Shown piece after piece: positions 9,447 through 55,421 of a stretch of DNA of 64,000 nucleotides. The stretch covers positions 192,001 to 256,000 of the forward strand of contig CAXXWX010000006.1 in assembly GCA_963675745.2 (NCBI GenBank), given 5' to 3'. A program made the position numbers and the translations under genes. Each line of letters starts with the position of its first letter. The stretch's first letter is position 1. This stretch comes from Phycisphaerae bacterium (lineage in GTDB: Bacteria; Planctomycetota; Phycisphaerae; UBA1845; Fen-1342). The notes beneath the pieces are model-generated. The model saw nothing but the letters and a program-made list of their open reading frames with translations, was not told the origin of the DNA and did no database searches.

Positions 9447-10908
9447 ATGCGGGACGATCCCAAACGAGCCTTGCCGCTGATATTCGAACAGAGCCGCGCC
9501 GGGTTGTGCGCGGTCAGCCTGCCGGGGTGCGATGTGCCGGCGTGCGACCTGGAGACCGCCATCCCCGCCGAACTGCGTTGCGAGCAGCCGCCGGCGCTGC
9601 CGGAAGTCGGCGAATTGGACGTCGTTCGGCATTTCACGCGGCTCAATCAACGCGCATTCAGCGTCGATACCAATTTCTACCCGCTCGGCTCGTGCACCAT
9701 GAAGTACAACCCGAAGATCAACGAGCGGGCGGCGGCATTACCCGGCCTGGTCAACCTGCACCCCTACCAGGACGACGCCGATGTGCAGGGCATGCTCGAG
9801 TTGCTATATCGCACCCGCGCTATGCTCGAACAGATCACCGGGTTTCATGAGGCGTCACTGCAACCCGCGGCAGGAGCCCATGGCGAGCTCACCAGCCTGT
9901 TTGTCATCAACGCCTTTCACCGAGACCACGGCGGGCCCCGATCCAAGGTGCTCACGCCCGACTCGGCTCATGGCACCAACCCGGCTTCATGCGCCGTCTG
10001 CGGTCGCCAGGCGGTGCCGGTCAAATCGATGGCGGATGGCTCGGTTGATCTGAACGACTTGCGCGCGCTGGTTGATGAAGATACCGCCGCCATGATGCTG
10101 ACGTTTCCCAACACGGTCGGCAAGTTTGAGCGTCACATCGCGGAGATCGCCGAGATTCTCCATGCGAAGGGCGCGCTGCTCTACGTTGACGGCGCGAATC
10201 TCAACGCGATCTGCGGTATTACGCGCCCGGCTGATCTGGGCGCCGACATCATGCACTTTAACACGCACAAGACCTTCAGCACGCCGCACGGCGGCGGCGG
10301 TCCGGGGGCGGGCCCCATCGCCTGCGTGATGAAGCTATCGCCCTACCTGCCCGTACCGCAGGTGATGAAGCGCGATGATGGCAGCTTCTATTGGAACGCC
10401 GATCGCCCGCGCTCGATCGGGAAAGTGCGCTCATTCTATGGCCAGATCGGCGTGCTGGTGCGGGCCTATACGTTCTTGCGCGCGCTTGGAAACAGCGGGT
10501 TGCGCGCCGCCAGCGAGACCGCCGTGCTCGCGGCGAATTACCTCGCCGCCAGGCTCAAAGACCACTACACCCTGCCTTACGGCGGTCCGTATGGCCACGA
10601 GTTCATTCTGCTGCCCGAAATGGAAAAACAGGGCATCAGCGAACTCGACGTGGCCAAGCGTCTGATTGACTATCGGTTTTCACCCGCCGACGATGAGTTG
10701 GCCGGTGCCGCACTGTCTGATGATCGAGCCGACCGAGACCGAGTCGAAGCAGACGCTTGATGACTTCGCCGACGCGATGATCCAGATAAAGCGCGAGGCG
10801 CTCGAGGAGCCGGACAAGGTCAAGCGCGCGCCGCACAACGCGCCGGTCCGCCGTCTCGATGAGGTCGCCGCCGCCCGCAAGCCGATTCTGCGCTGGCAGG
10901 CTGAGTGA
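9447..10908 (+). CDS. gcvPB: Glycine dehydrogenase subunit 2, with a 1-nt frameshift near 10674
   Basis: [12 protein letters not shown] and [14 protein letters not shown] in 9447..10760. The conserved tail [10 protein letters not shown]...[10 protein letters not shown] lies in another frame (10666..10908); the junction reads gac tat C ggt ttt cac. Confidence 0.9.
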
Positions 10909-10947: not shown

Positions 10948-12133
10948 TTACCACACCCCCGGGATCTTCGTGCCGCACTTCGGGCAGTGGCCGGCTTTCA
11001 TGTTGTTGGCCGCCACGCGGAAGCCGATGCGGCGGATTAGGTCGTGGCCGCAGCCGTGGCAATACGTGTTCTCGCCGGGGTGCATCGGCACGTTCCCCGC
11101 ATATACGTAGCGCACACCGGCGTCCAGCGCGATCTGGCGGCAACGCTCAATCGTCTTGACCGGCGTGCTGGGCAGGTTGGTTACCCGGTAAGTCGGGTGA
11201 AACCGTGTGAAGTGCATCGGTACGTCCGGCCCGAGATGTGCGACGACCCACTCGCTCATTTCCCTGATCTCGGCGGCCGAGTCGTTCAGCGTCGGGATGA
11301 TCAGCACCACCATCTCAAACCAGATGCCGATGTCCTTCAGTGTCTCCAGCGTCGCCAGCACCGGTTTGAGCTCGCCATCGCACGAGTCGGCGTAGAACTT
11401 CTGCGTGAACGCCTTGAAGTCGATCTTCACCGCCGATAAGTGGTGGCAGAGTTGACGCAGCGGGGCTTCCTGGATGTAGCCGTTTGAGATCATCACGCTG
11501 CCAATGCCCGACTCGCGCGCCAGCTTGGCCGTGTCGTGCATGTATTCGTAGAAGATGACCGGTTCGGAGTAGGTATATGCGATCGTCGGACATCCACTGG
11601 ATTGGCAAGCGGCGACCAGGCGAGCGGGGGTTACCGGCGTGCTCTCCACCTGCTCCGGGCGGAACTGGCTGATCCGCCAGTTCTGGCAGAACTTGCACTC
11701 CATGTTGCAGCCCGCCGTCGCTATCGAAAACGCCTTTGTCCCTGGACGGAAGTGAAAGAGCGGTTTCTTCTCGATCGGATCCACGTTCGCCGAGCAGAGC
11801 GCGCCATAGACCAGCGTCTGGTACTCGCCGCGCACATTCTCGCGCACGCCGCAATAGCCGCGCTCGAGTTCCGCGACGTGGCACTCCCGCGGGCACAGCA
11901 CGCACTTGATTTCGTCAGTCGCCGTGTTGTTCCCAGAACATCGCCCGGCGGCGCACGACGCCTTTCAGTAGCGGCCCCGAAAGAGCGCCGGTGCCGGCCG
12001 TATCCTGTGCAAACACGCAGCCGGCACCCAACGCGCATGCACCGCCAGCAAGCCCCCAGCGCAGCAGTTCGCGGCGCGATGGCTGTGAGAAGACGTCGTC
12101 GAGGTTGTCCACGTCAGACCTCGATACGTTCAA
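10948..12133 (-). CDS. amrS: AmmeMemoRadiSam system radical SAM enzyme with Tat-like leader; 1-nt frameshift near 11917
   Basis: CVLCPRECH...GYCGVR, VDPIEKKPLFHF, GCNMECKFCQNW (CxxxCxxC), IAYTYSEP. Upstream ORF 11915..12133 (SRRELLRW...AMFWEQHGD) joins it if one base is removed (ggc gac T gac gaa atc aag tgc). Confidence 0.88.
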
Positions 12134-13118
12134 TCCTCTTCAAGTCACTGACGCCCAGGCCCTGCGCCCCCGCCGTGGCAATGTACGTCGGCGGGCGGCC
12201 GGCATCGGCGAGGGACTCCATGCCCTGTGCGGCGCGGTGTTTTTCGAGGTAGTCGACACCGACAGCATCCAGCGCCACGAAGTCGGTGCTGGTGATCATC
12301 CCGCCGAATCGCCAATCGTAGGCGCGTTTCCTCATCGGCCCGCCTTCGTACTGCCCGAGCGTTCCATCACAGACGGTCAAGCGCCACTTGTCGCGAATGA
12401 ACGGGTGCCTGACGATGTCGGCGATGTATGGATCGCAACGGTTGCCGTGATACTTATTGGGGTTGTGGATCGCGCCGTAGAAGTTCTTCATGCCCAGCGA
12501 GGCCCCGGCAATGCCATGGTCCTTGAGCACGGGGGCCGAAATGAGCGCGTCGATGCGCTCGGCCAGAATTTTCGAGAAACAGGAGCCGATCTTGCCGCTG
12601 GTTTGCACGTCGCGCTGATAGCCTCCGCCCAGCCGGCTGGCGTCGGTTCCGCGACACTGCACGCCCTTGCCTGACTTGTTGAGCTTGAATCCCGCGCGTT
12701 CCAGCTCGGAATCGAAACGGTCCCAGATGACAATGTTCTCCGCGGGGACATCCGCCTGCCGCAAGCCGGCGACGATGGCATCCACGACCGCCGGCTGTGT
12801 TGTGCGGCCGAGGCAATTGACCTTGATACCAATGCGTTCGGTCGGCTTGAAGAGCTTGCGCCACGCGCTGGCGGCATCCGCGGACTTGGTCAGCTTCTGC
12901 ATCGACGCATCCAGCATCTTGCACAGCAGATCCGCGTGCTCGCTTATCTCCCCTTTCAGCAGGGCGTCGTCGCGGGCGATCGCGACCAGCGCGCCCGGCG
13001 CCGCGGCACCCTCCTCCGCCCAGACTTGCTCGAATGGCACCGCGGCCCCGGCGACCACCGCCCCTACTTGTGCGAGAAACTGCCGTCGACTCGTGAGATC
13101 TGGCCCATGCATCAGCAT
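12114..13118 (-). CDS. DUF362 domain protein with Tat signal
   Basis: SRRQFL twin-arginine leader; IGIKVN, PVLKDHG...SLGMKNFYG and DFVALD motifs. Confidence 0.82.
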   Translation of the reverse strand: MLMHGPDLTSRRQFLAQVGAVVAGAAVPFEQVWAEEGAAAPGALVAIARDDALLKGEISEHADLLCKMLDASMQKLTKSADAASAWRKLFKPTERIGIKVNCLGRTTQPAVVDAIVAGLRQADVPAENIVIWDRFDSELERAGFKLNKSGKGVQCRGTDASRLGGGYQRDVQTSGKIGSCFSKILAERIDALISAPVLKDHGIAGASLGMKNFYGAIHNPNKYHGNRCDPYIADIVRHPFIRDKWRLTVCDGTLGQYEGGPMRKRAYDWRFGGMITSTDFVALDAVGVDYLEKHRAAQGMESLADAGRPPTYIATAGAQGLGVSDLKRIERIEV

Positions 13119-13160
13119 TCCGCCTTTCTGCCGATTGCGACACTGCCGCGACCGGCGGGT

Positions 13161-14690
13161 CTAATCACACCCCGGCTCGCCGAAAACTTCCGCTTCAAAC
13201 GAATATATCTCCGTGTCGCGTTGCTTCCAAGCATCATTTGGCAAACCTGCCTTGCGGCAGGTCTGCGCGAGGAACTCTTCCCGTCGCCAGCCCCGCTCAT
13301 AGGCCACCTGGGGCAGCAAAACGCCGCGCCGTCCGCCGCGCGCTATCAGCAATCCGTGCTGACCAATGATGATGTCCCCCGTGGACTTCATGCGTTGCAT
13401 CGGCGTCAGGTAGCTGATTTCAATGTCCAGATCGTCAAGCTCGCCGGCCGTGACCGGATTGTGTACAAAGCGGCGATCGCGACACGCCGCCACCGCGTTG
13501 CTGATTACAGCCTCGTACAGCGGCCCCGTGGCCAGCATGTTGCCGATACACCCCCGCAGCTCGCCGTGGTTTTGCAGCGTCACAAAACACGCGCCGTCGC
13601 CGCGCAGCTTGGCGGGCAAGTCGGCGGCGCTCGCCGCGGGCACTTCCTGGCTTTGCAGATAGGCCTTCACCGTGGCACGGGCCATCTTCAGCAACCTGTC
13701 GCGCTCGTCGGCCGCCAGCGTGCCTTGCCGCGGCGTGAAAACGAACGACTGGTAGGTGACGCTGTTGGTCCAATCACCGGTGATCTGGCCGGATGTGTCA
13801 AAAGCCGCGCGCGTTGCCCGGGCACCGCCGCGCATCGACAGCACACGCAGCAGGAGTCGTACGGCACCGCGCCCGCAAATTGTATCGCTTGTCTTGTCGA
13901 GGTGGGCGGCGAAACCGTCGTAGTCGCAGCGCTCAATCGCTGTGGCGGCTTTGTCCGCCAGGTCGCGCAGGCGCGTCGGCACATCCTCGCTGAATGGCTG
14001 GTAACCGTAGTTAGGCCCGAAGTGAGTGAAGTCAGTGCTGGCGACCAGCAGCGTCTCGTCATCAATCAGCGGGAGCAGGGCGTGTGCCGCTCGCGCGCAG
14101 TCATCGTCAGACATCCGCCCGACCAGGAGCGGCACCAGCGAGAAACTGCCCAGCGCGCGCTGCAGGAAGGGCAATTGCAGTTCGAGCGAGTGTTCGCGCG
14201 CGCCGACGCCGGTGTGTGCGCCGTATAGCTCCGAAGTCCGCAGCGCCGCAAATGCTTCGCGGTCGAGGGCAACGTCTCCCAGCGGCGTCGCATAGGCGGA
14301 CAAGTCGTCCGGCACATCCACGCCCTTGTACGAGCCCGCGTAACGATGATCCAACGCCAGCACGATCACGCGCTTGTAGGTGTGCCCACGCAGAGCGGCG
14401 TAGGCCGCCGCCGCCACCGGTGCGCTGAACCGGTAGCCCGCGTGCGGGCTGATCAGCGCGACGGGTTTGCCTGTTGTTTTGGGGGGGCCGTGCTTATCGA
14501 GCAGGCCGTCAATCTGCTTCGTGAGCTCAGCCGGGTCAGCCGGGTACCAGGTCCCGGCAAAACCTGCCGGTCGGACCTTCGCCTCATCTTTGGCACAGGC
14601 GTGCCCGATCGAGGCAACACCTGCGGCCGCCAGCAGAACAAAGACAGCGCTAATTCGTGCCGCGGGCATGGGATACGCCTCCATCACCAT
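13161..14690 (-). CDS. amrB: AmmeMemoRadiSam protein B (Memo-like) fused to protein A (AMMECR1), with signal peptide
   Basis: Memo domain: VRPAGFAGTWYP, ISPHAGYRFS, EHSLELQLPFL, ASTDFTHFG, TICG. AMMECR1 domain: GACFVTL...LRGCIG...GVLLPQVA. Hydrophobic N-terminal leader. Confidence 0.92.
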   Translation of the reverse strand: MVMEAYPMPAARISAVFVLLAAAGVASIGHACAKDEAKVRPAGFAGTWYPADPAELTKQIDGLLDKHGPPKTTGKPVALISPHAGYRFSAPVAAAAYAALRGHTYKRVIVLALDHRYAGSYKGVDVPDDLSAYATPLGDVALDREAFAALRTSELYGAHTGVGAREHSLELQLPFLQRALGSFSLVPLLVGRMSDDDCARAAHALLPLIDDETLLVASTDFTHFGPNYGYQPFSEDVPTRLRDLADKAATAIERCDYDGFAAHLDKTSDTICGRGAVRLLLRVLSMRGGARATRAAFDTSGQITGDWTNSVTYQSFVFTPRQGTLAADERDRLLKMARATVKAYLQSQEVPAASAADLPAKLRGDGACFVTLQNHGELRGCIGNMLATGPLYEAVISNAVAACRDRRFVHNPVTAGELDDLDIEISYLTPMQRMKSTGDIIIGQHGLLIARGGRRGVLLPQVAYERGWRREEFLAQTCRKAGLPNDAWKQRDTEIYSFEAEVFGEPGCD

Positions 14691-17592: not shown

Positions 17593-17629
17593 GTGATATC
17601 CAGGAGTGATTCACCACACGGGAGACACC

Positions 17630-20242
17630 ATGTACCGACCATTTGTTTTGGCTGTTCTGCTGACCACCGTGTTCGCCGGAAGCCACCCCACCGCGATCGC
17701 CGCCGGCCATCGTGACTGGACAGTTGTCCCGTTGGGTTCGTTCCAGTTGGACCAGGATGAGCAGGATATCGTGATTCGCCGTCCATACGATCGTTTCGGC
17801 GTAATTCAAACGCCGATCGCGTTGCTGGCCGTGCCGGACCGGGCACAGATTGCATCGGGCGAACCGATGAAGATCACGATGTCGATCGGGGAGACAACCT
17901 TTCCTGAGTGGAACATCGACTCGCCGGGGCAGATCTACGTCATCGGTGTCGAAGTCCAACAACGGCATGCCACCCAAGCAAACGCCGCCCTGACAATGCA
18001 CGTGCGTGTTGAAGGTGCGGCGGCGCCGGTACAGTTGATCGCCAGCGCCCCACCAGACCTTTGTCTGGCCGGCGCCCACTGGGTTGGACCGCTGGCCGCG
18101 CGTGTGGAGCAGTTGGAACGCGGGTTGCCTCGCGAGTACCTGACCGCGGCCCTGGCGAGCAACGTTGTGCCACTGGATCAGGCGCGGGCGGAGTTTGCCC
18201 GCCTGTCCGAATCCGCCGATCCGCGGATCGCCAGATATGCCCGCGAGAAACTCCGGCGGATCGACTTCGTCATCGCGGAGCGCAGTGCATCCGAGGATTT
18301 CGCCGGCCACTATCGCCTCGGCCTCTACGCACAGCAGTGCGGGCTTTACCGACACGCCCTGACGCACTTCGCCATGGCGACGTCGTTCGACGGTGCAAGT
18401 GCGTTTGAACGCAGCGACGCTCTGTACCGGCTGGCGGAGGCGATGATGCGCTGTGGGGAGCCCATCAGCCGCGTGGCCGACGTGGCGGAGCAGGCCGGCA
18501 TCGCGGCGGCCGTCAAAGCCAACACCTGGGATGTCTGCCTGGCCGTCCTGATGGCCGAGCACACCGACGAGGTCAGTGAAGACGGGGCCGCGACAGAACC
18601 GAAGCGCATGCGCCCAGATCAGATCGAGACGTTGAAGCGCGACTGGGGGATTGTGGAGAAGATGGTTTTCGGTGCTTCCGGCGGCTACTTGCGCCTCAAG
18701 ACGCGAGTCATCCAGGTACCCAGCAACCAGCGCGTTGCTTACGACGTCTTCGGCGGTTGGTTACCGGGGCCGGCCGACGGGTTTCTCAGCCAGCGTGGCG
18801 ATGTTGACGTTGTCATGTCGTTTCGGCCCGGAGGGGCTTCGGTGACAGGCGGCGCCGATTGTGGCCCCGACGGTTCCGCAATGGTGGACATTGGCCCGGA
18901 ACGCGGATGGGAGGTCTTTCTTCACGAGTGGAACCACTCGTTCGACTGGGCACGCATCACCGGGGAGACTTGCGCAGGCTATCCAATCACACACCATTCA
19001 GATGGTTGCGGATACCAGCCCATTCCGTCCATGGGCTATGGACATCTTTCCAGTATGCGCTACTGGGCCCCACCGGGCATGTACCAACGCACCGAGCTGG
19101 CGGATACCGACCCCGGCACGGGTTATGTCCGCAACTGGTGGCTGGGCCAGCCGCACGCCATTGACGATGATCCCCCCGCCCAGGGCACGCCAACCGCACG
19201 ACACGCGCGTGAATTCGGCCCGGATCGCTTCAGTGAAGCCGACAGAGACTACAGCGGATTCGACGGCAACTTCATCGACCTGCTTCCCCATCTAACCGAG
19301 ACTTTGGGCGCCGAGCGCCCCGTCTGGTGTGTCACGCAGGCGACCACGCATGTCTGGTCTCCCGAGCGGCGCGCCGTACGCCTGTGGCTTGGTCACAATG
19401 ATGGCATGGCGGTCTGGGTCAATAACGAGCTGGTGCATCGGGGGGATTACTACGCCATCGCGAAGTTTGAGGACCAGAACTGGCCCAACATGGCGTGTAC
19501 GGGGGCCCTGCTGCTGCAAGGTTGGAACCGGATTGACGTGGCGGTCGAATCATGGCCGGCGCCGTTCGACAAAGGCTATGGGTTCTCGGTTCGCATCTGT
19601 GATTACGACAACCATGAGATTCCGGATCTGAAGATCGCCACGGCGGGCAGTGACGCACCGACGACAATTGCTCCCGACGCGCTCGCCCCGCGTTTCGGGA
19701 GGTTCTACAAGTGGGATCAGGTGCGCGACGACTACTACTGGAAACTCCCGCGCATTACCGCCGAGGACTTGCGCGATCATTGCGGGCTGGCTGACGGCGC
19801 CACGCTTTCCGTCGTGAGCAACATCGGCCCCACCAAGGGCTTTCTGGCCATTGGAGCATCGTCGGACAAGAGCGATGGCACGCTGCTACCGATCCCCGAC
19901 GATTGGGACCGCGAGCGCGATCGTGACGAGCGGGTCAACAACATCATGGACTACAACCGCGAGGCGATCGCGGTCTACCCGTTCGAGATGCGCGGGCAAA
20001 CTCGGCATCTGCTGATCATGCGGCCGGAAGCGGTCGGCCCATATCTCAAATGTCTCAACGAAGCCCCCGACGCAGCACGCGTGTACGCGGATAAGCCGGT
20101 GAGCGATCGCATTGTCGGGTATCTGCTGACCGGCCGGAACATCGGTGAGCAGGAGGGTGTCCGCGCCTGGGTTGTGGCGGAGGCGATGCTGCCCGCGCCG
20201 CTGCCGCTTGATGAGGAAGATCTGCTGGCGCCGCTGCCATAG
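17630..20242 (+). CDS. Large secreted multidomain protein with TPR-like helices and an HEXXH zinc motif
   Basis: GGAG RBS; signal peptide; HYRLGLYAQQCG...ALYRLAEA helices; FLHEWNHSF; LWLGHNDGMAVWVN beta-sandwich segment. Confidence 0.7.
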   Translation: MYRPFVLAVLLTTVFAGSHPTAIAAGHRDWTVVPLGSFQLDQDEQDIVIRRPYDRFGVIQTPIALLAVPDRAQIASGEPMKITMSIGETTFPEWNIDSPGQIYVIGVEVQQRHATQANAALTMHVRVEGAAAPVQLIASAPPDLCLAGAHWVGPLAARVEQLERGLPREYLTAALASNVVPLDQARAEFARLSESADPRIARYAREKLRRIDFVIAERSASEDFAGHYRLGLYAQQCGLYRHALTHFAMATSFDGASAFERSDALYRLAEAMMRCGEPISRVADVAEQAGIAAAVKANTWDVCLAVLMAEHTDEVSEDGAATEPKRMRPDQIETLKRDWGIVEKMVFGASGGYLRLKTRVIQVPSNQRVAYDVFGGWLPGPADGFLSQRGDVDVVMSFRPGGASVTGGADCGPDGSAMVDIGPERGWEVFLHEWNHSFDWARITGETCAGYPITHHSDGCGYQPIPSMGYGHLSSMRYWAPPGMYQRTELADTDPGTGYVRNWWLGQPHAIDDDPPAQGTPTARHAREFGPDRFSEADRDYSGFDGNFIDLLPHLTETLGAERPVWCVTQATTHVWSPERRAVRLWLGHNDGMAVWVNNELVHRGDYYAIAKFEDQNWPNMACTGALLLQGWNRIDVAVESWPAPFDKGYGFSVRICDYDNHEIPDLKIATAGSDAPTTIAPDALAPRFGRFYKWDQVRDDYYWKLPRITAEDLRDHCGLADGATLSVVSNIGPTKGFLAIGASSDKSDGTLLPIPDDWDRERDRDERVNNIMDYNREAIAVYPFEMRGQTRHLLIMRPEAVGPYLKCLNEAPDAARVYADKPVSDRIVGYLLTGRNIGEQEGVRAWVVAEAMLPAPLPLDEEDLLAPLP

Positions 20243-46840: not shown

Positions 46841-48428
46841 CCCGGATTATTCACGGTTGAGTTGAAAGAGCGGCCTTCGTGTGGTCTAACTGGTTTTGAC
46901 CAAACAAGTTGGACCGAGCACGGAGGCCGCCGATGTTTGAACAGACTGAAGCTCAGTTGTTCTTCTCGTTTTTCGCCGATCGCAAGCTGATTGTCCAGCG
47001 TCACGCCGGACAAATTTCCTCGGACGCCGGGCTGTTGCCGATTCGGCAGTTGGACCAGCGGCTGCGTTTTACCGCGCGGCTGGTCGCCGGCCTGAGCGAT
47101 GACCGTCACGAACCGCGGCACACGCAACTCGAGATGCTGCGGCAGCGGCTCTACGGGGTGCTGGCCGACTATGAGGACTGCAATGATCACGACACGCTTC
47201 GCGACGATCCGATCTTCAAGATTGTTGCGGATCGGTTGCCCGAAGACGATCCGCTCGCCAGCCAGCCCACGCTATCGCGTTTCGAGAACGCCGTCACGAT
47301 CGACACGCTGTGGCAAACGCTCGACTTCCTGGTCGCGACCGGGATCGAGCGGCTGCGGGAGAAGAACGAGGGCCAAATGCCCGATCGCCTCACGCTCGAT
47401 CTCGACGCCACCGACGATCCGGCGCACGGGCAGCAGCAATTGGCGTTGTTCCACGGCTACTACGAGCAACACCAATACTTCCCGATCGTGATCAGCGAGC
47501 CGACCACGCAGCACGTGTTCTACGCCGCCCTGCGGCCGGGCAGTGTGCACGCCGCTCACGGTGCCGACGATGACCTGGAATTCGTGGTCGAGCGTCTGCA
47601 CGCCGCCCGCGGCGACCTTGCGATTCACGTTCGCGGCGACAGCGGCTTCGGCGTGCCATCGATGTACAAAATCTGCGAGAAAAACCGACTGACGTACACG
47701 TTCGGCATCGGCGCCAACAAACGGCTGCAGGCCCTGGCCCAGCCGTTACTCGACCGAGCCGTCGCCGAATACGAACGCACCGGCGAGAAGCAACGCCTGT
47801 TCATGCACTTCAACTACCAGGCCGGCTCGTGGGATCGGCCACGCGCCGTGATCGCCAAGGCCGAGTGCCAGGCGGCCGGCACGAACCTGCGTTTCGTGGT
47901 CACCAATCTACAGGTGAACTCCGACGCCGACGCGCAGCGTGTTTACGACGACTACATCCAGCGTGGTGCCAGCGAACAACGCTTCGATGAACTCAAGAAC
48001 GGTCTGCACGCCGACCGGCTGAGTTGTCATCGCTTCGTGGCCAACTTCTGGCGTCTGCTGCTGCACACGGCGGCGTTCAACCTGTTGAACTGGTTGCGTG
48101 ATGACGAGCAGGTGCCGGAGACGTTGCGTACCGCCCAGCCGGCCACGTGGCGGAGTCGCGTGATCAAAGTGGCGGCAACGGTCATCCAGTCGGCTCGGCG
48201 GGTGGTCGTGGCGATTGCTGGCCAGTGGCCACACTGGTCGACTCTTCACACCGTCGCCGTCCGCAGTGGTGCCATCCCCGCAGGCCCGTAACCCCGCCGA
48301 CAACGTGTTTGCTCGTGGGGGTAAGGGGGAATTGCGCGCGTCCTGCATCCGAGAACGTCATCAGCCCCTTGCAAAACCGCGACGAACAACAAAAACCCGA
48401 ACGGCACCCTACCCGTGAATAATCCGGG
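46841..48428 (+). mobile_element. IS1380-family insertion sequence (1588 bp)
   Basis: Perfect 16-bp IRs cccggattattcacgg (46841-56) and ccgtgaataatccggg (48413-28); TTAG direct repeat at 46837-40 and 48429-32. Confidence 0.93.
46933..48291 (+). CDS. IS1380-family DDE transposase
   Basis: GQISSDAGLL, YEDCNDHDTLRDDP, LASQPTLSRFEN, LDLDATDDPAHGQQ, VRGDSGF and QRGASEQRFDELK motifs. Confidence 0.94.
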   Translation: MFEQTEAQLFFSFFADRKLIVQRHAGQISSDAGLLPIRQLDQRLRFTARLVAGLSDDRHEPRHTQLEMLRQRLYGVLADYEDCNDHDTLRDDPIFKIVADRLPEDDPLASQPTLSRFENAVTIDTLWQTLDFLVATGIERLREKNEGQMPDRLTLDLDATDDPAHGQQQLALFHGYYEQHQYFPIVISEPTTQHVFYAALRPGSVHAAHGADDDLEFVVERLHAARGDLAIHVRGDSGFGVPSMYKICEKNRLTYTFGIGANKRLQALAQPLLDRAVAEYERTGEKQRLFMHFNYQAGSWDRPRAVIAKAECQAAGTNLRFVVTNLQVNSDADAQRVYDDYIQRGASEQRFDELKNGLHADRLSCHRFVANFWRLLLHTAAFNLLNWLRDDEQVPETLRTAQPATWRSRVIKVAATVIQSARRVVVAIAGQWPHWSTLHTVAVRSGAIPAGP

Positions 48429-49271: not shown

Positions 49272-51818
49272 TCAATTGTGCTTGCGCCCTGCTGACAGGA
49301 TGATTGTTGAGGCGAGCTTGATTGCGGCGAGGAGGCAGGCCGTGGTCGTGATGCCGAAGACCGGTATCAGCAGGATTCCGCAGGTCAGCGCGCCCAGGCA
49401 GGCTCCGGCGTGGTCCGGGCCGACGATGCGCGCAGCTACGACGGCGGGATGCTGGTCCATGTTTCGCCGCAGGTGCCCCGCCAGCGCGAACGCGGCGCCG
49501 CCGAGCACGCCGGTTAGTAGCACCATGATTGAGATGCAGACCTCAACGAGCGCGAAACCGGGCGAGTCGGCATTGAATGCGCCGAGCGCCATCAGCAGTG
49601 GCGACGCCGTGAGGGCGAGGAGCGTTAGAAGCAGGTCGACCACGACTAGCGCATGCCATGATGAGGACCGGCGGGCAGGTGGTTCGGTGGTTGGTTCGGC
49701 GGGCTGGGGTGGGAGATTGTGGGTTTGCTCTACTTCCACGGCCGGCGAGGCGCCGGCCGCTACGTTTTGTGGCGCGGCGCCGCCTGCTGCATTCGGTGGC
49801 GACATGTCGGCTGGCACATTTCGTCGTCGGCCGGCCAGCGCGCAACCTATAACCAGGCCGGCCATGAACAGTGCGATTATCCAGCCGATGCGCTGATAGA
49901 CATAGCCGTACAGACTCTGAAAGGCGAAAAGCCAGACCATGCTGAGGGCCATGGTCACAAAGCCGGTGGTGCCCACGGAAAGCGTGACCGCTCCGGCCGC
50001 CCATCCGTCACCCGCTCCGCGTCGCAGGCGCGTCAGCAGTAGCGTTGCGCCGCCGAGAAGAGCCAGTGCAACGGCGACGTGCCACAGGTGGATTGAGCGC
50101 AGGGCCGCAATCGGGCCGGCTGCACTGCGTCCCGGACCGCTGCCCCCACGGGTGATCGATTCCCACAGCACCAGTCGTTGCAGGTAGATCGCCGGGTGCA
50201 GGTCGGTACTGATTTGCACAAGGTCGGCGCGATCAAGATCAGCTCGGCGGCCAGCAATCTTGGATTCATCGAGCCAATCGGTGCCGCCCTCAAACCACAG
50301 CGGGTCAAACAACTCCGCCGCGACATGACGCCGAGTGTAGCGCGCTGCCAGCTCCGCCGGATCGGTGCTGAGCAGTTCCCGATCGGTTGCGGCGAGAATC
50401 TGGGCCGGGTTGCCCCACCCGATCAGGATCTCGCGGAAATGTCGGGCCAGTGTAGCGCGCAGTCCGGCCAGGTAGTCCCGCGCCGCGGGTGAGAGCGCGC
50501 CCTCAGACGCCGTCGCATTTGTGCAAAACACGGCCCGGGCGGTCATGGCATTGCGCAACTCGGCGAAGAACTCGTCCGTGTAGAATCGCGCGCGCTGTGC
50601 CGACATCGGCTCGGGCAAGCGCGCGATGACGAGGTCGAATTGGGCGCGTTGCGTCTTGATGAAATGGCGCGCGTCGTCGTGGTGTACCGTGACGCGCGCA
50701 TCGACGAGCGCCTGCCGGTCGCGGTCGGAAACATAGGGTCGCACCAGCTCGATGAAACGCGGGTCCAGCTCAACGTAGTCCACGCGCTCAACCGGGTGCA
50801 GCAGAACCTCCGCCAACAGCCCCTCGACGCCTCCGCCGAGAATGAGCACGCGGCGTGGCAGGGGATGCTGACACATCCAGAAGTGCGCGCGGGGGGCGAA
50901 TGTAAATGGATCGGGGAAGTCAGCGGCCACTTGCCCGTCACAATAAAGCGTGTATTGCCCGGCCCGGTGCCCGATGGCCAGATTTTGATAGCGAGACTCG
51001 GCCTCGGCCACCAGCCTGTAGCCGGGGGCGAGCGTTTGCCAGCGGCGTTGCACCAGACGGTGGTCGAGCCGATCGCCGGCCAGCAGCGCCACGCCGGCGG
51101 CGCCGACCGCCAGGCCAATCAAGGCCCAACTCGGTGGCGATGCGTACCACGCGCGGCCCGGCGCGCGGCGTAATAGTACGGCGCACGACGCGGCCGTGAT
51201 CGCTCCGCAGAGCAGGGCAATCTGAATCGGGCGCAAAGACTCGACCGCCCAGAAGCTGAAGGCCGCGCCGCCAATCAGGCTGCCGACACATTCCAGGGCG
51301 TAAACACGCGCAAACGAGAGCAGCGGTGTGCGCGGGGCACCGGGCGCTGCGCTGATCCCCCCCGTGTTGCACGCCAGTGGAAACGCCATGCCGACCAGCA
51401 TGCTGGTCGGCGAAACCAGGAGCATGGCCGCGAGTGCCGTGGTCGGCAACGATAGCAACTCGCCGGCCTCAACGCCGAGCCACGCGCGGGCGCCCCGAAA
51501 GGCCCAGAGCTCGACACACGCGGCGGCACTCAGGGCCAGCAGTACGATCGCCAGGCAGGTTCCCGGCGCGCGCGTGCCGGCGCCTGTTCTGGCGATGCCC
51601 TCACCGATGTACGCACCGACCGCCACGCCCAGCAGCCAGGCGAACAGCACGATCCCCCAGGCGAGTTCGCTTCCGAACATCAGCACCAGGGCCTCGCGCA
51701 GCAATAGCGACTGGGTGACGATCGCCTGCGCCCCCCAGGCCACGACGACCACACTCAGTCCGAACCGGGAGGCGCGCTCGGATCGAAGGGCTGCTGGCGT
51801 TGGCAGGTGCGCGCACAT
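49272..51818 (-). CDS. Multi-TM membrane protein with spermidine-synthase-like SAM-binding domain
   Basis: AAGGAG RBS before ATG at 51818; Q.LLLRE...GSEL; ESRYQNL; RVLILGGG...VELDP...DDAR.FI...FDLVI; flanking TM blocks. Confidence 0.8.
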   Translation of the reverse strand: MCAHLPTPAALRSERASRFGLSVVVVAWGAQAIVTQSLLLREALVLMFGSELAWGIVLFAWLLGVAVGAYIGEGIARTGAGTRAPGTCLAIVLLALSAAACVELWAFRGARAWLGVEAGELLSLPTTALAAMLLVSPTSMLVGMAFPLACNTGGISAAPGAPRTPLLSFARVYALECVGSLIGGAAFSFWAVESLRPIQIALLCGAITAASCAVLLRRAPGRAWYASPPSWALIGLAVGAAGVALLAGDRLDHRLVQRRWQTLAPGYRLVAEAESRYQNLAIGHRAGQYTLYCDGQVAADFPDPFTFAPRAHFWMCQHPLPRRVLILGGGVEGLLAEVLLHPVERVDYVELDPRFIELVRPYVSDRDRQALVDARVTVHHDDARHFIKTQRAQFDLVIARLPEPMSAQRARFYTDEFFAELRNAMTARAVFCTNATASEGALSPAARDYLAGLRATLARHFREILIGWGNPAQILAATDRELLSTDPAELAARYTRRHVAAELFDPLWFEGGTDWLDESKIAGRRADLDRADLVQISTDLHPAIYLQRLVLWESITRGGSGPGRSAAGPIAALRSIHLWHVAVALALLGGATLLLTRLRRGAGDGWAAGAVTLSVGTTGFVTMALSMVWLFAFQSLYGYVYQRIGWIIALFMAGLVIGCALAGRRRNVPADMSPPNAAGGAAPQNVAAGASPAVEVEQTHNLPPQPAEPTTEPPARRSSSWHALVVVDLLLTLLALTASPLLMALGAFNADSPGFALVEVCISIMVLLTGVLGGAAFALAGHLRRNMDQHPAVVAARIVGPDHAGACLGALTCGILLIPVFGITTTACLLAAIKLASTIILSAGRKHN

Positions 51819-51931
51819 CCTGGTGCTCCTTCGTCCCGCGCGACAGATTGCGGGCTGCCGGCGTGGCGCGGTCGGGGCCACATTCTGCCGCGGGGCGTGT
51901 ATAGTATGACGAGCAACGGGAGTCGTGCGCC

Positions 51932-52582
51932 ATGCCACGTCTGTTTGCCAAGCAATACATGCGGCCGGTGACGGCGATCAGCCGTACTGAAAAGGCGGTA
52001 GGCGCCGGCATTCTGCTGCTGACGGCGACGATTGTGGCCGCGTTCTTCATCCACGTCGCGACCCGACGAGAAAGCCCGCTGAGCGCTGACCCGGAGATCT
52101 ACGGCACCGGGGCCGAAGTTGACCAGACACCGGGATCCCCGCCGGCAGCAACAGCCGAACCGTCCGGCGGTTTCCCGGAATCAGGTCTGACCGATTGGCA
52201 ACGACCGTCGCGGCTCGAGCGCTATGCACCCGATGAGCTGTACGTAAAGATCAACGGTCAGGCGGACGCGTATATCGAGAGTGGCTGTGTGGGATTGACG
52301 TTCGGAAGCTACAGCTCCCGGGCGAATGCCGAGGATGCCATCGACGTTTATTGGTACGACATGGGCACTGCGGCGAACGCGTCGGCGGTATACGAAGACG
52401 AGAAGCCGCCGAACGTCGCCGCGATCGAGCTGGGAGGCGCGGCGTACCAGGTTGGCAGCGCGGTGTTTTTCTGGCAAGGCTCGGGCTATGTGCAGGTAAT
52501 GCCGACCAGCTTTGACGATTCGCAGGCCGGCGCGGCCCTGGCGATTGCCCGCCGCCTGGCCGATTCTCTCCCCGGTGAATAG
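51932..52582 (+). CDS. Membrane-anchored periplasmic protein, DUF6599-like
   Basis: One N-terminal TM; Y.PDELYVKINGQADAYI...IDVYWYDMG...FWQGSGYV pattern. Confidence 0.6.
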   Translation: MPRLFAKQYMRPVTAISRTEKAVGAGILLLTATIVAAFFIHVATRRESPLSADPEIYGTGAEVDQTPGSPPAATAEPSGGFPESGLTDWQRPSRLERYAPDELYVKINGQADAYIESGCVGLTFGSYSSRANAEDAIDVYWYDMGTAANASAVYEDEKPPNVAAIELGGAAYQVGSAVFFWQGSGYVQVMPTSFDDSQAGAALAIARRLADSLPGE

Positions 52583-52624: not shown

Positions 52625-53710
52625 ATGACGGATAGGCGACTGACACGCAGGGAATATCTCAAACGTGGCGCCGGCGCGGTTTTAACCGCGGGGGTGGCCG
52701 CGGCGGGCGGGTATTTGCTGTGGGATCCCACCGGCGATGCGGGGCGCGCCGGCGCGGCCCAATCCACACCGCTCTGGCAACCGACGAACTACTTCGCTGA
52801 TATTGAATTGCCGCCGTCAGCTCCGCGGATCAGCGTCGCAGTTGGTGATGGGCAGCAGATTGACCGGCTGGTTCGTGCGGCGCTTGAGGCATTGGATCCC
52901 GGGGCCGGGCTGGGTCGATTCATCAAAGCCGGCGACGTCGTGCTGCTGAAGCCGAACGTCGGCTTTGACCGGCCGTCGCAGTTGGGCGCCACAACGCATC
53001 CTGAGGTCGTGCGGTCGATGATTCGCTTGTGTCTGGAGGCCGGCGCGCGAGACGTACTGATCACGGATAACCCGATCGAGACGCCGCAGGCCTGTTTCTC
53101 GCGCAGCGGAATCGCGCGTGTCGCCGATGAGGAGGGGGCGCGCGTGGTGCTGCCGACGGCGCAGCGATTCGAGACGCTGGTGCTGCGCGATCGTCCGGTT
53201 GACCGAGCGCGTGGAGAGGCGCTGGAACGCTGGCCCATCCTGCACGCTCCCCTCTCAGCCGCGACGAAGGTCATCGGCATCGCGCCGATCAAAGACCACA
53301 ATCTGTGCAGCGCATCGATGAACCTGAAGAACTGGTATGGCCTGCTTGGCGGGCGCCGAAACCAGTTCCACCAGGTGATTCATGAGATCATCAGCGACCT
53401 GGGCCTGATGATCAGCCCGACGCTGGTCGTTGCCGACGCAACGCGCGTGATGATGCGCAACGGTCCGACGGGAGGACGGATCACCGACGTCCAACCGGGC
53501 GGGCAACTGGGCCGGCCGGCGATCATCGCGTCGGCTGACCCGGTGGCCTGCGACGCGTGGTGCTACGAAAACCTGTTGGGGCGTGATCCCGCCGGGTTGC
53601 GCTACCTCGATCTGGCCGGCGACAAAATCGCGGCGCACCGATCGCCGCCGGACAGCAACGGCTCGGCGAGCGTGATTGGCGCGTATACGATCGCGCCGGG
53701 CTCGTTGTAA
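52625..53710 (+). CDS. DUF362 domain protein with Tat signal (possible C-terminal frameshift)
   Basis: TRREYL leader; VLLKPNVGFDR...TTHPEVV, PIKDHN...SMNLKNWYG, RNGPTGG and DPVACD motifs. Confidence 0.82.
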   Translation: MTDRRLTRREYLKRGAGAVLTAGVAAAGGYLLWDPTGDAGRAGAAQSTPLWQPTNYFADIELPPSAPRISVAVGDGQQIDRLVRAALEALDPGAGLGRFIKAGDVVLLKPNVGFDRPSQLGATTHPEVVRSMIRLCLEAGARDVLITDNPIETPQACFSRSGIARVADEEGARVVLPTAQRFETLVLRDRPVDRARGEALERWPILHAPLSAATKVIGIAPIKDHNLCSASMNLKNWYGLLGGRRNQFHQVIHEIISDLGLMISPTLVVADATRVMMRNGPTGGRITDVQPGGQLGRPAIIASADPVACDAWCYENLLGRDPAGLRYLDLAGDKIAAHRSPPDSNGSASVIGAYTIAPGSL

Positions 53711-53807
53711 CGACACGTGTGTAGAGGCCGACTCCCGAGCCGGCCGTGGCACTCAGGTGAACCCTCGTCGGGCGTGGAGGCCCGACGCCCCAGCGGAAGA
53801 GGCACTG

Positions 53808-55421
53808 ATGGCCGAGCCGGTTGAACGAGTGCGCCCCACGCGGTTCCGTGACTCGTGGCTGAACTGGACGCGTATCACGGTCGTGCGCGTGATCGTGCAG
53901 ACGGTCATGTTCGCGCTGTTCAGCGCATTCGTGCTCCTGACGACATTTGCCAGCCTCGATCGCTGGCCGGCTCTGCACTGGTGGGTCAGCAAAGTGCTCG
54001 AGGTCGACCCGCTCATCGCGTTGGCGACCGCGCTCACAACGCACACCGTCTACAAGGGGTTGTTGTGGTCGTTGGTGATCCTGATCCCGACCCTCTTCCT
54101 CGGACGCTTCTTCTGCAACTGGATCTGCCCGTTCGGGGCACTGCACCAGTTCGTCCGCTGGGTGTTCTGGAACGGCAGTGCCCGCGAGATCATCGCAGGC
54201 AACAGCTACCGCCCCATACATGCGGTCAAGTATTACGTGCTGACCGGCCTGCTGCTGGCCGCGGCGGCCGGCAGCCTGCAGATCGGCCTGTTGGACCCGA
54301 TTTGCCTGCTGTATCGTTCGATCACCGGCGTGGCCCTGCCCACGCTGGGGATGGCCGCGCCGGCGCTGGCGGGTGAGACGCGCTTGTATCAGGGGGCGTG
54401 GTTAATCGGCTTGCTCCTGGTTGGCCTGCTGGCCGCCAATCTGGTCATGCCACGTTTCTTCTGCCGCGTGTTGTGCCCGCTGGGAGCGCTGTTGGGCGTG
54501 TTGAGCAGGTTTGCCTGGTGGCGTATCGAGCGCGACCCGTCCGTCTGTCACCAATGCGACCGTTGCCGGCTGCACTGCGAAGCCGCGTGCGACCCGCACG
54601 CCAAGCTGCGCAAGGCCGAGTGCTTCGTATGTCTGAATTGCATCGAGGATTGCCCCGAGGGCGCGCTGGCCCTGCGCTTCGCATTCATGCCACCGAAAGA
54701 GCACGAGGTGACCGGGCCGGATGTGTCGCGCCGCAAGCTGCTGCTCGCGGGCATGGCGGGGCTGCTGTTTTTCCCGTTCGCGCGGAGTTCGGGAAAAAGC
54801 ACGCGTAACTTCTCCAGCTCGGTCGTACGGCCGCCCGGGGCCGTCGAAGAAATCGAGTTTCTCGAACGCTGCATCAAGTGCGACCAGTGTGCGCGTATCT
54901 GTCCGACAAACGTCATTCAACCCGACTGGTTCGACAGCGGAATCGAAGGACTCTGGACACCAGTTCTTAACTTCCGCATGGGATTCTGCCAGTTGCACTG
55001 CACGGCGTGCGGGCAGGTGTGCCCGACCGGCGCGCTGCAGCAGATTCCCGTTGCGCAAAAACTCGGGCTCGGCGAATTCTCAGAGCAAGGCCCGATCCGG
55101 CTGGGCACGGCGCACGTGGATCCGTCCCGTTGCCTGCCGCACGCTAATAACATCCCATGCGTGGTCTGCGAGGAAGTCTGCCCCACGAGCCCCAAGGCCA
55201 TCTACGGCGAGCGCGTTACGCGCGTGGCCCGGGACGGCACAATGCTGGAGCTGACCGTCCCGCGCGTCGATGTCGATCGCTGTATCGGTTGCGGAATCTG
55301 TGAGCATGAATGTCCGGTAGTCGGCGACCGCCGCGCTATATACGTGACGGCGGAGGGTGAGACGCGTTCGCAATCTCAGCCGCAGCGCGATCGCAACCGC
55401 TCGGTGCGTGCCGTGCCCTGA
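53808..55421 (+). CDS. Membrane 4Fe-4S protein: NapH/MauN-like domain fused to NapG/MauM-like polyferredoxin
   Basis: GRFFCNWICPFG, RFFCRVLCPLG, several CxxCxxCxxxC motifs, internal SRRKLL, VRPPGAVEE. Confidence 0.87.
   Translation: MAEPVERVRPTRFRDSWLNWTRITVVRVIVQTVMFALFSAFVLLTTFASLDRWPALHWWVSKVLEVDPLIALATALTTHTVYKGLLWSLVILIPTLFLGRFFCNWICPFGALHQFVRWVFWNGSAREIIAGNSYRPIHAVKYYVLTGLLLAAAAGSLQIGLLDPICLLYRSITGVALPTLGMAAPALAGETRLYQGAWLIGLLLVGLLAANLVMPRFFCRVLCPLGALLGVLSRFAWWRIERDPSVCHQCDRCRLHCEAACDPHAKLRKAECFVCLNCIEDCPEGALALRFAFMPPKEHEVTGPDVSRRKLLLAGMAGLLFFPFARSSGKSTRNFSSSVVRPPGAVEEIEFLERCIKCDQCARICPTNVIQPDWFDSGIEGLWTPVLNFRMGFCQLHCTACGQVCPTGALQQIPVAQKLGLGEFSEQGPIRLGTAHVDPSRCLPHANNIPCVVCEEVCPTSPKAIYGERVTRVARDGTMLELTVPRVDVDRCIGCGICEHECPVVGDRRAIYVTAEGETRSQSQPQRDRNRSVRAVP

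Follow-up and report, generated by a model that had tools for sequence, protein, structure and literature searches.

An AmmeMemoRadiSam gene trio with export leaders in a Phycisphaerae bacterium, and a DUF362 protein as possible redox partner of its radical SAM enzyme

The 64,000-nucleotide stretch of Phycisphaerae DNA analysed here (contig CAXXWX010000006.1, positions 192,001 to 256,000; called the window, to whose positions all coordinates refer) contains an AmmeMemoRadiSam gene trio in which every product carries an export leader. The genes encode a Memo-AMMECR1 fusion (AmrB-AmrA, or AmrB-A), a DUF362 protein (DUF362-1) and the radical S-adenosylmethionine (SAM) enzyme AmrS. The system, predicted to be exported, is a genuine variant of the known AmmeMemoRadiSam system. 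Predicted export of all three products from the cytoplasm is well supported because the leaders are conserved, the AmrS clade uses several export routes, some of its members are fused to outward-facing domains and the genome has a TatC gene. The reading preferred here, with a probability of about 0.5, is an extracytoplasmic sub-type of AmmeMemoRadiSam in which DUF362-1 is a docked redox partner of AmrS and not its client. The chemistry of radical SAM enzymes depends on SAM, a strong reductant and an oxygen-sensitive cluster, and these enzymes are generally regarded as cytoplasmic; here the radical chemistry probably takes place outside the inner membrane.

The three genes lie on the minus strand, where a preliminary description of the window had placed them (10948 to 14690), and searches with the models for the AmmeMemoRadiSam components and DUF362 matched them all (Table 1). 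The curated cut-offs are exceeded for Memo (TIGR04336, 198 bits against 26), AMMECR1 (TIGR04335, 170 against 99) and AmrS (TIGR04337, 369 against 220). The fusion matches human MEMO1 (E 3e-27) and PH0010 (E 4e-30). Its Memo part has His83, His115, His167, Asp220, His223 and Cys272, which we take to be the metal and active site, and its AMMECR1 part has RGCIG (379-383) and DxRF (405-408); these site residues are invariant in 33 sequences. CxxxCxxC is conserved in AmrS, as are an N-terminal and a C-terminal Cys motif, and all catalytic cysteines are intact. The definitions of CxxxCxxC and of the AMMECR1 motifs RGChG and DxRa follow PMC2034487.

The open reading frame (ORF) called automatically for amrS hides the leader, as had been noticed. 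The full gene starts with a GTG at 12112, one base past the DUF362-1 stop. Its reading frame shifts at about 11917, where the alignments to six intact homologues pass from one frame to another. Logan contigs of the runs X1 and X2 are each one base shorter at 11917/11919, which bears out the 1-nt frameshift proposed earlier; X1 and X2 derive from a single sample, which may be the source sample, and hence give no independent strain evidence, and X3 does not cover 11917. The surplus base is thus absent from both runs that cover the site, and the frameshift is an assembly error. Both of these runs are free of two further surplus bases, one in gcvPB at about 10672 and one at about 10910. A rough survey of about 139 gene loci elsewhere in the genome gave two junctions that look like frameshifts, so the density of indels is not high. 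The stop after the frame change in the window sequence could suggest that amrS is a pseudogene in this genome, but contigs without the surplus bases at all three sites, together with the intact cysteines, rule this out as far as contigs allow and leave it next to no likelihood.

Leaders were scored with hidden Markov models and with regular-expression and hydropathy rules made for this analysis. DUF362-1 begins with SRRQFL, as had been described, and its leader scores 21.7 bits against a cut-off of 16.7 in the TIGR01409 model for twin-arginine translocation (Tat). A twin-arginine (RR) leader is found in 64 of 67 complete orthologues; L146 and L148 are leaderless and the leader of L152 is degenerate. 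The motif in AmrS is SRRELL; the textbook Tat consensus is RRxFLK. RR is kept 56-66 residues ahead of the first Cys motif in 117 of the 120 best AmrS protein homologues, in most of which an AxA-like site precedes a conserved QD, and the three cases without RR are short gene calls. Among the best 80 of 403 GTDB loci, RR with a hydrophobic stretch is present in 79 AmrS, compared with 191 of 4050 shuffled leaders, and the sole miss is cut by a contig end. A lack of RR in homologous AmrS, raised in the preliminary description as an objection to export, is thus not what these sets contain. The hydrophobic region of the AmrS leader (12008-12075) has one to four cysteines in 115 of 117 homologues. 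The Sec-type leader claimed for the fusion is present as well: its hydropathy is 2.7, and it reaches at least 1.8 in 54 of the 58 orthologues that could be scored. Of the other four, three miss narrowly and one is truncated, and four more were unscored; the figure stands without a shuffle control. Among these orthologues the hydrophobic character is conserved and the sequence is not. The same genome encodes an AmrS paralogue and a stand-alone Memo, neither of which has a leader. The AmmeMemoRadiSam genes are clustered in the relatives, with the Memo-AMMECR1 fusion in 60 of 80 loci, a set in which many contigs are short. The relatives are labelled mainly Phycisphaerae, but also anammox bacteria, Acidobacteriota, Gemmatimonadota and Abyssobacteria.

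In a tree of 166 of 181 AmrS cores (15 with partial coverage were excluded), the 66 sequences with a leader all fall on one side together with 7 unlabelled ones, and 93 leaderless sequences on the opposite side (support 0.80/0.78). The leader-bearing clade comprises Tat, Sec, lipoprotein and membrane-anchor forms. P0134 and P0153 consist of one N-terminal transmembrane (TM) segment, FMN_bind and AmrS with no further TM; FMN_bind domains face outward, and these fusions therefore place AmrS outside independently of the RR motif. In P0130, P0140 and P0145, FMN_bind is followed by a NapH-like (Fer4_5) block, then a last TM and then AmrS, and P0169 is a Sec-type triple fusion of leader, Memo-AMMECR1 and AmrS. 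Fusion partners of AmrS include FMN_bind, Fer4_5, DsbD_2, a beta-propeller and CBM_11 (the five FMN_bind proteins above, P0132, P0133, P0136 and P0143), and inteins with LAGLIDADG domains occur in P0183, P0188, P0217, P0218 and P0259. A second Tat-leader branch of the same order (L051, L053-L059, L061, L062) has AmrS after a protein of about 500 amino acids without a Pfam match, whose N-terminus is mostly signal-like. In anammox-type genomes (L173-L185) the Tat AmrS, DUF362-1, Sec fusion and transporter are present but mostly unlinked; that the target compartment there could be the anammoxosome is speculation.

The preliminary description deals with the three-gene operon. The trio is real, but a second half of the system, 35 kb away in the window, was missed. 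Its most constant member is a transporter of the major facilitator superfamily (MFS) fold with a soluble spermidine-synthase-like (SpeE-like) domain; a DUF6599 protein, a second DUF362 protein (DUF362-2) and a NapH/NapG-like polyferredoxin are encoded beside it. Among 60 relatives, some with incomplete genomes, an AmrS orthologue was found in 18. DUF362-1 is present in 18/18 of these against 0/42 of the others, the fusion in 18/18 against 3/42, the transporter in 17/18 against 1/42 and NapH/G (at E<=1e-100) in 18/18 against 8/42. Both AmrB-A and DUF362, whose association with Tat-bearing AmrS across genomes had been put forward for testing, accompany AmrS in all 18 of these relatives. The class to which the anammox bacteria belong was covered with a further 41 genomes. 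A leader-bearing AmrS is encoded in 29, and the transporter domain is found in 28 of them against 2 of the 12 without. Downstream of the operon, the 80 loci include the SpeE-like membrane protein in 34, a second DUF362 in eight and the NapH/G-like ferredoxin in seven.

The transporter model (predicted local distance difference test, pLDDT, 88) resembles the MFS fold with its 6+6 helices (Z 28.6, root mean square deviation, rmsd, 3.3 over 361 aligned residues) and spermidine synthases (Z 27.7), and the LtaA lipid flippase is among the fold matches (Z 20.5). Lys/Arg counts alternate in a positive-inside pattern by which the soluble domain is predicted to lie outside, with one outer loop atypically basic. 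In this domain a Glu and an Asp that presumably bind the adenosyl group are kept. The positions of Asp104 and Asp173 of human spermidine synthase, which we take to be the residue that selects decarboxylated SAM (in GGGDG) and the catalytic Asp, are replaced. Because both aminopropyltransferase aspartates are lost, the domain is unlikely to be a spermidine synthase.

Binding between AmrS and DUF362-1 was modelled because two DUF362-1 genes are leaderless while their AmrS keeps the leader. These genes (L146:9027-9980 and L148:1752-2687) adjoin the Tat-leader AmrS, and their products may be exported piggy-back. The complex model scores 0.66 (0.66, 0.71 and 0.54) and the best of three controls 0.00; of 157 solved pairs 116 attain the mark for such scores, compared with 2 of 215 mismatched ones, counts that are only roughly valid with our own alignments. 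At least 85% of the contacts agree and the pLDDT of the partner is 92. In a numbering of AmrS that starts at base 11916 and puts the cluster cysteines at 70, 74 and 77, its predicted contacts are residues 15-23, 73, 80-89 and 243-244, that is the cluster-proximal loop and the N-terminal domain. On DUF362-1 they are the pocket rim (103-104, 202-203 and 218-224). No similar complex appeared in the structure searches made. Glu18 and Arg86 of AmrS are kept in 22/22 of the DUF362-1-clade AmrS examined, and residue 85 is Phe, Tyr or Val. In the other class DUF362-1 is found in 15/15 genomes of the DUF362-1 clade, and among seven sister-clade genomes only G091 has it, in part, and only there does AmrS retain the Glu18/Phe85-Arg86 motif. 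Stated by locus, AmrS L189, from a genome with a partial DUF362-1, retains the interface motif and its six sisters without the gene do not. DUF362-1 is present in 0/13 genomes with other leader-bearing AmrS types, including two with AmrS after an FMN_bind/NapH gene. The model makes docking of DUF362-1 on the [4Fe-4S] loop of AmrS likely.

To our knowledge, DUF362 is a family without a known function. No solved structure matched DUF362-1 by sequence, and fold search alone found relatives: the model resembles the N-domain of lactate racemase (LarA) with Z 15.0-17.1 and rmsd 3.1-3.6 over 206-214 aligned residues, and the next fold has a Z of 5.3. This accords with PMC11770544, in which DUF362 and LarA belong to the same Pfam clan. 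His201 and Lys211 align with LarA His174 and the cofactor-tethering Lys184, in a local hhalign alignment that is weak (E 0.011). Of the other cofactor-binding residues of LarA, His200 has His224 or Cys228 nearby in this alignment, and Arg75 is not conserved. DUF362-1 has no PF09861 match, LarA C-terminal domain or equivalent of His108, and the structural alignment ends at residue 296. DUF362-1 is no member of LarA but may bind the same cofactor, and proteins of the DUF362 family may be clients of the nickel-pincer nucleotide. The genome has larB, larE and larC over cut-off (G000 C3:96517, C16:24769 and C26:250731) and six DUF362 matches; at 91% completeness it gave no PF09861 (LarA) match. If DUF362 does bear the pincer cofactor, larBCE would have a client in genomes where no LarA is found.

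The system might work as follows. AmrS would fold and gain its cluster in the cytoplasm and leave by Tat, as would DUF362-1, and the fusion would leave by Sec; judged by the leaders, this is very likely. The MFS/SpeE-like protein might supply SAM outside, or remove its products, through the outward adenosyl-binding domain, with chances that we consider even. The pocket of DUF362-1 would face the cluster loop of AmrS, and DUF362-1 could be the reducing partner in place of cytoplasmic flavodoxin. This role is slightly more tentative than SAM supply, and is suggested because radical SAM clusters need a protein reductant and because flavin or NapH modules replace DUF362-1 elsewhere. The native reductant of the pyruvate formate-lyase (PFL) activating enzyme cluster is flavodoxin, according to PMC13450708, which also gives the need for a protein reductant. 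The NapH/G wire would probably recharge DUF362-1; that its cofactor is the nickel-pincer nucleotide is doubtful. AmrS would then generate a 5'-deoxyadenosyl radical, Cys381 of AMMECR1 would carry an intermediate and the Memo metal site would complete the step. The substrate would be an envelope compound, either lipid-linked or a small molecule, and not RNA. A self-contained periplasmic machine in the fullest form, with a Tat-exported AmrS, an MFS exporter of SAM with an outward SAM-binding lid and a DUF362 that reduces the cluster by the nickel-pincer nucleotide instead of flavodoxin, is unlikely.

Several observations weigh against the preferred reading. The twin-arginine leader claimed for AmrS is present and conserved, yet with 18.2 bits against 22.7 (PF10518, E 0.0024) it does not reach the Pfam threshold for Tat signals, and it has no TIGR01409 match at E<=0.001. 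Support for the exported clade is moderate and is 0.71/0.63 in a second, larger tree; the root is a midpoint and the leader labels were assigned by the author. A Sec-routed AmrS would require cluster assembly outside the cell, which is unaccounted for. Related genomes are not independent, so the co-occurrence counts overstate. G081 has a leader-bearing AmrS and gave no transporter match in the 41-genome search, and NapH/G also occurs in genomes without the exported system. LarC cannot link the pincer cofactor to DUF362-1, because it is near-universal (57/61 genomes, compared with 27/61 for LarA-like proteins, and 38/41 in the other class). For docking of reductants at the cluster loop, the backing from the literature is a reference title in PMC10267522. 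Localisation, binding and activity are all predictions from sequence and models.

The preliminary description had suggested a periplasmic radical SAM machine that matures a cofactor for DUF362. Its export part is well supported; cofactor maturation is possible but not the best reading. In that case AmrS and the fusion would modify DUF362-1 or the cofactor in its pocket, and the PFL activating enzyme, the nearest solved relative of AmrS (E 1e-16), does act on a protein. The predicted contact uses the pocket rim, and AmrS and DUF362-1 co-occur exactly in the 60 relatives. We nevertheless find a client role rather unlikely, because DUF362-1 is lacking in the 13 genomes with other leader-bearing AmrS types, the contact lies on the post-cluster loop and N-terminal domain of AmrS, and flavin or NapH modules take its place in another branch. 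Tat export also suggests that DUF362-1 leaves the cytoplasm already loaded. DUF362-1 also occurs in G068 and G082, which have neither an exported AmrS nor the transporter; this counts against a client and against a dedicated redox partner alike.

The same Tat and Sec export and the same docking and reduction by DUF362-1 would be shared by a system in which the MFS protein moves substrate or product, for example as a flippase for a lipid-linked intermediate, with the outer domain acting in that pathway as a SAM-dependent methyl or aminocarboxypropyl transferase. The match to LtaA, the retained adenosyl-binding residues beside the replaced aspartates (roles that we presume) and the constancy of the transporter as partner of exported AmrS are consistent with this. 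It leaves the delivery of SAM unexplained, no substrate signal was found among the genes neighbouring the AmrS loci examined, and we think it quite unlikely. Less probable still is an AmrS that is not or only transiently exported, with the RR leader as a tether to the membrane or a handle for chaperones, and the radical reaction at the cytoplasmic face while the partners are outside. The low Tat score agrees with this, the leader cysteines could serve another job, and no periplasmic radical SAM enzyme was found in the open-licence literature searched. The independent Sec, lipoprotein and TM-anchored AmrS, the FMN_bind fusions without further TM, the AxA-like cut sites and the predicted binding to the Tat-positive DUF362-1 argue for AmrS outside the inner membrane, as in the extracytoplasmic sub-type preferred here.

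The frame change in DUF362-2 is probably another assembly indel. An ORF just beyond the transporter gene (46909-48291) reads, we presume, like an IS1380-type transposase. The gcvPB gene (9447-10908) is broken by the false frameshift near 10672. A functional tie to the adjoining glycine cleavage genes was considered and rejected; they are absent among the recurrent neighbours in 80 loci and are taken as local context. The ORF at 17606-20242 encodes an 878-amino-acid protein with a signal-like start and without a Pfam or NCBIfam match.

Table 1. Features of the exported AmmeMemoRadiSam system and its second locus (window positions)
Feature	Position	Strand	Remarks
amrS radical SAM gene, full extent	10948..12112	-	ORF call spans 10948-11901 only
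Surplus assembly base in amrS (false frameshift)	11917..11919		Homologue alignments and Logan contigs
AmrS twin-arginine leader	12008..12112	-	Ends in AxA-like site before conserved QD
DUF362-1	12114..13118	-	334 aa; PF04015 match; lactate-racemase N-domain fold (model)
DUF362-1 Tat leader (SRRQFL)	13017..13118	-	TIGR01409 over cut-off
Memo-AMMECR1 fusion (AmrB-AmrA)	13161..14690	-	509 aa; TIGR04336 and TIGR04335 over cut-off
AmrB-A Sec-type leader	14592..14690	-	Possible starts Met1, Met3 and Met8; probable cleavage behind residue 33
MFS-fold transporter with spermidine-synthase-like domain	49272..51938	-	7 TM, soluble domain, 7 TM (predicted)
DUF6599 protein	51932..52582	+	N-terminal hydrophobic segment
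DUF362-2, RR leader	52625..53710	+	C-terminus changes frame near 53640 relative to orthologues
NapH/NapG-like membrane polyferredoxin fusion	53676..55421	+	Below family cut-offs

The AmmeMemoRadiSam association has been described and RNA base modification proposed for it (PMC2034487); a term search of the accessible part of that paper found no mention of signal peptides. For Memo-AMMECR1 systems, PMC7159879 refers to Burroughs et al. 2019. No description of an exported AmmeMemoRadiSam was found in the open-licence literature; Burroughs et al. 2019 lies outside that scope and may mention exported forms. Atlas look-ups gave clusters of the same family and no others. Radical SAM chemistry would gain a new setting in a conserved exported clade that has a transporter and redox partners of its own. 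The exported branch could not act on cellular RNA, contrary to the published proposal, and this would constrain the function of Memo and AMMECR1. For DUF362 the concrete leads are a predicted interface with AmrS and a possible cofactor, and the same clade is found in cultivable anammox relatives and is therefore open to testing.

Compared with known systems, the trio is a typical AmmeMemoRadiSam in that all three domains are over cut-off, the genes are clustered, B and A are fused and the catalytic motifs are intact. It differs in the leaders on every part, the inserted DUF362, the constant MFS/SpeE-like partner and the separate AmrS clade. AmrS is closest among solved structures to the PFL activating enzyme, which needs a protein reductant (PMC13450708). 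Unlike that enzyme it has extra N- and C-terminal Cys motifs, lies far below the activase cut-offs and is apparently exported, and no glycyl radical enzyme is among the recurrent neighbours of the AmrS loci. DUF362-1 shares with LarA the predicted N-domain fold, the Pfam clan (PMC11770544, as above) and the His201/Lys211 match, but lacks the C-terminal domain and a His108 equivalent, has an uncertain His200 equivalent and carries a Tat leader. The transporter has the SpeE and MFS folds and the adenosyl-binding residues of spermidine synthase and of the fused MFS/spermidine synthases (PRK03612, NF037959), but it is below both cut-offs, the Asp104/Asp173 positions are replaced and the domain is predicted outside. 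The polyferredoxin has NapH-like and NapG-like domains in one chain and so resembles the NapGH and MauMN wires that carry electrons from quinol to the periplasm, whereas it scores below their cut-offs and is paired with DUF362-2 and DUF6599.

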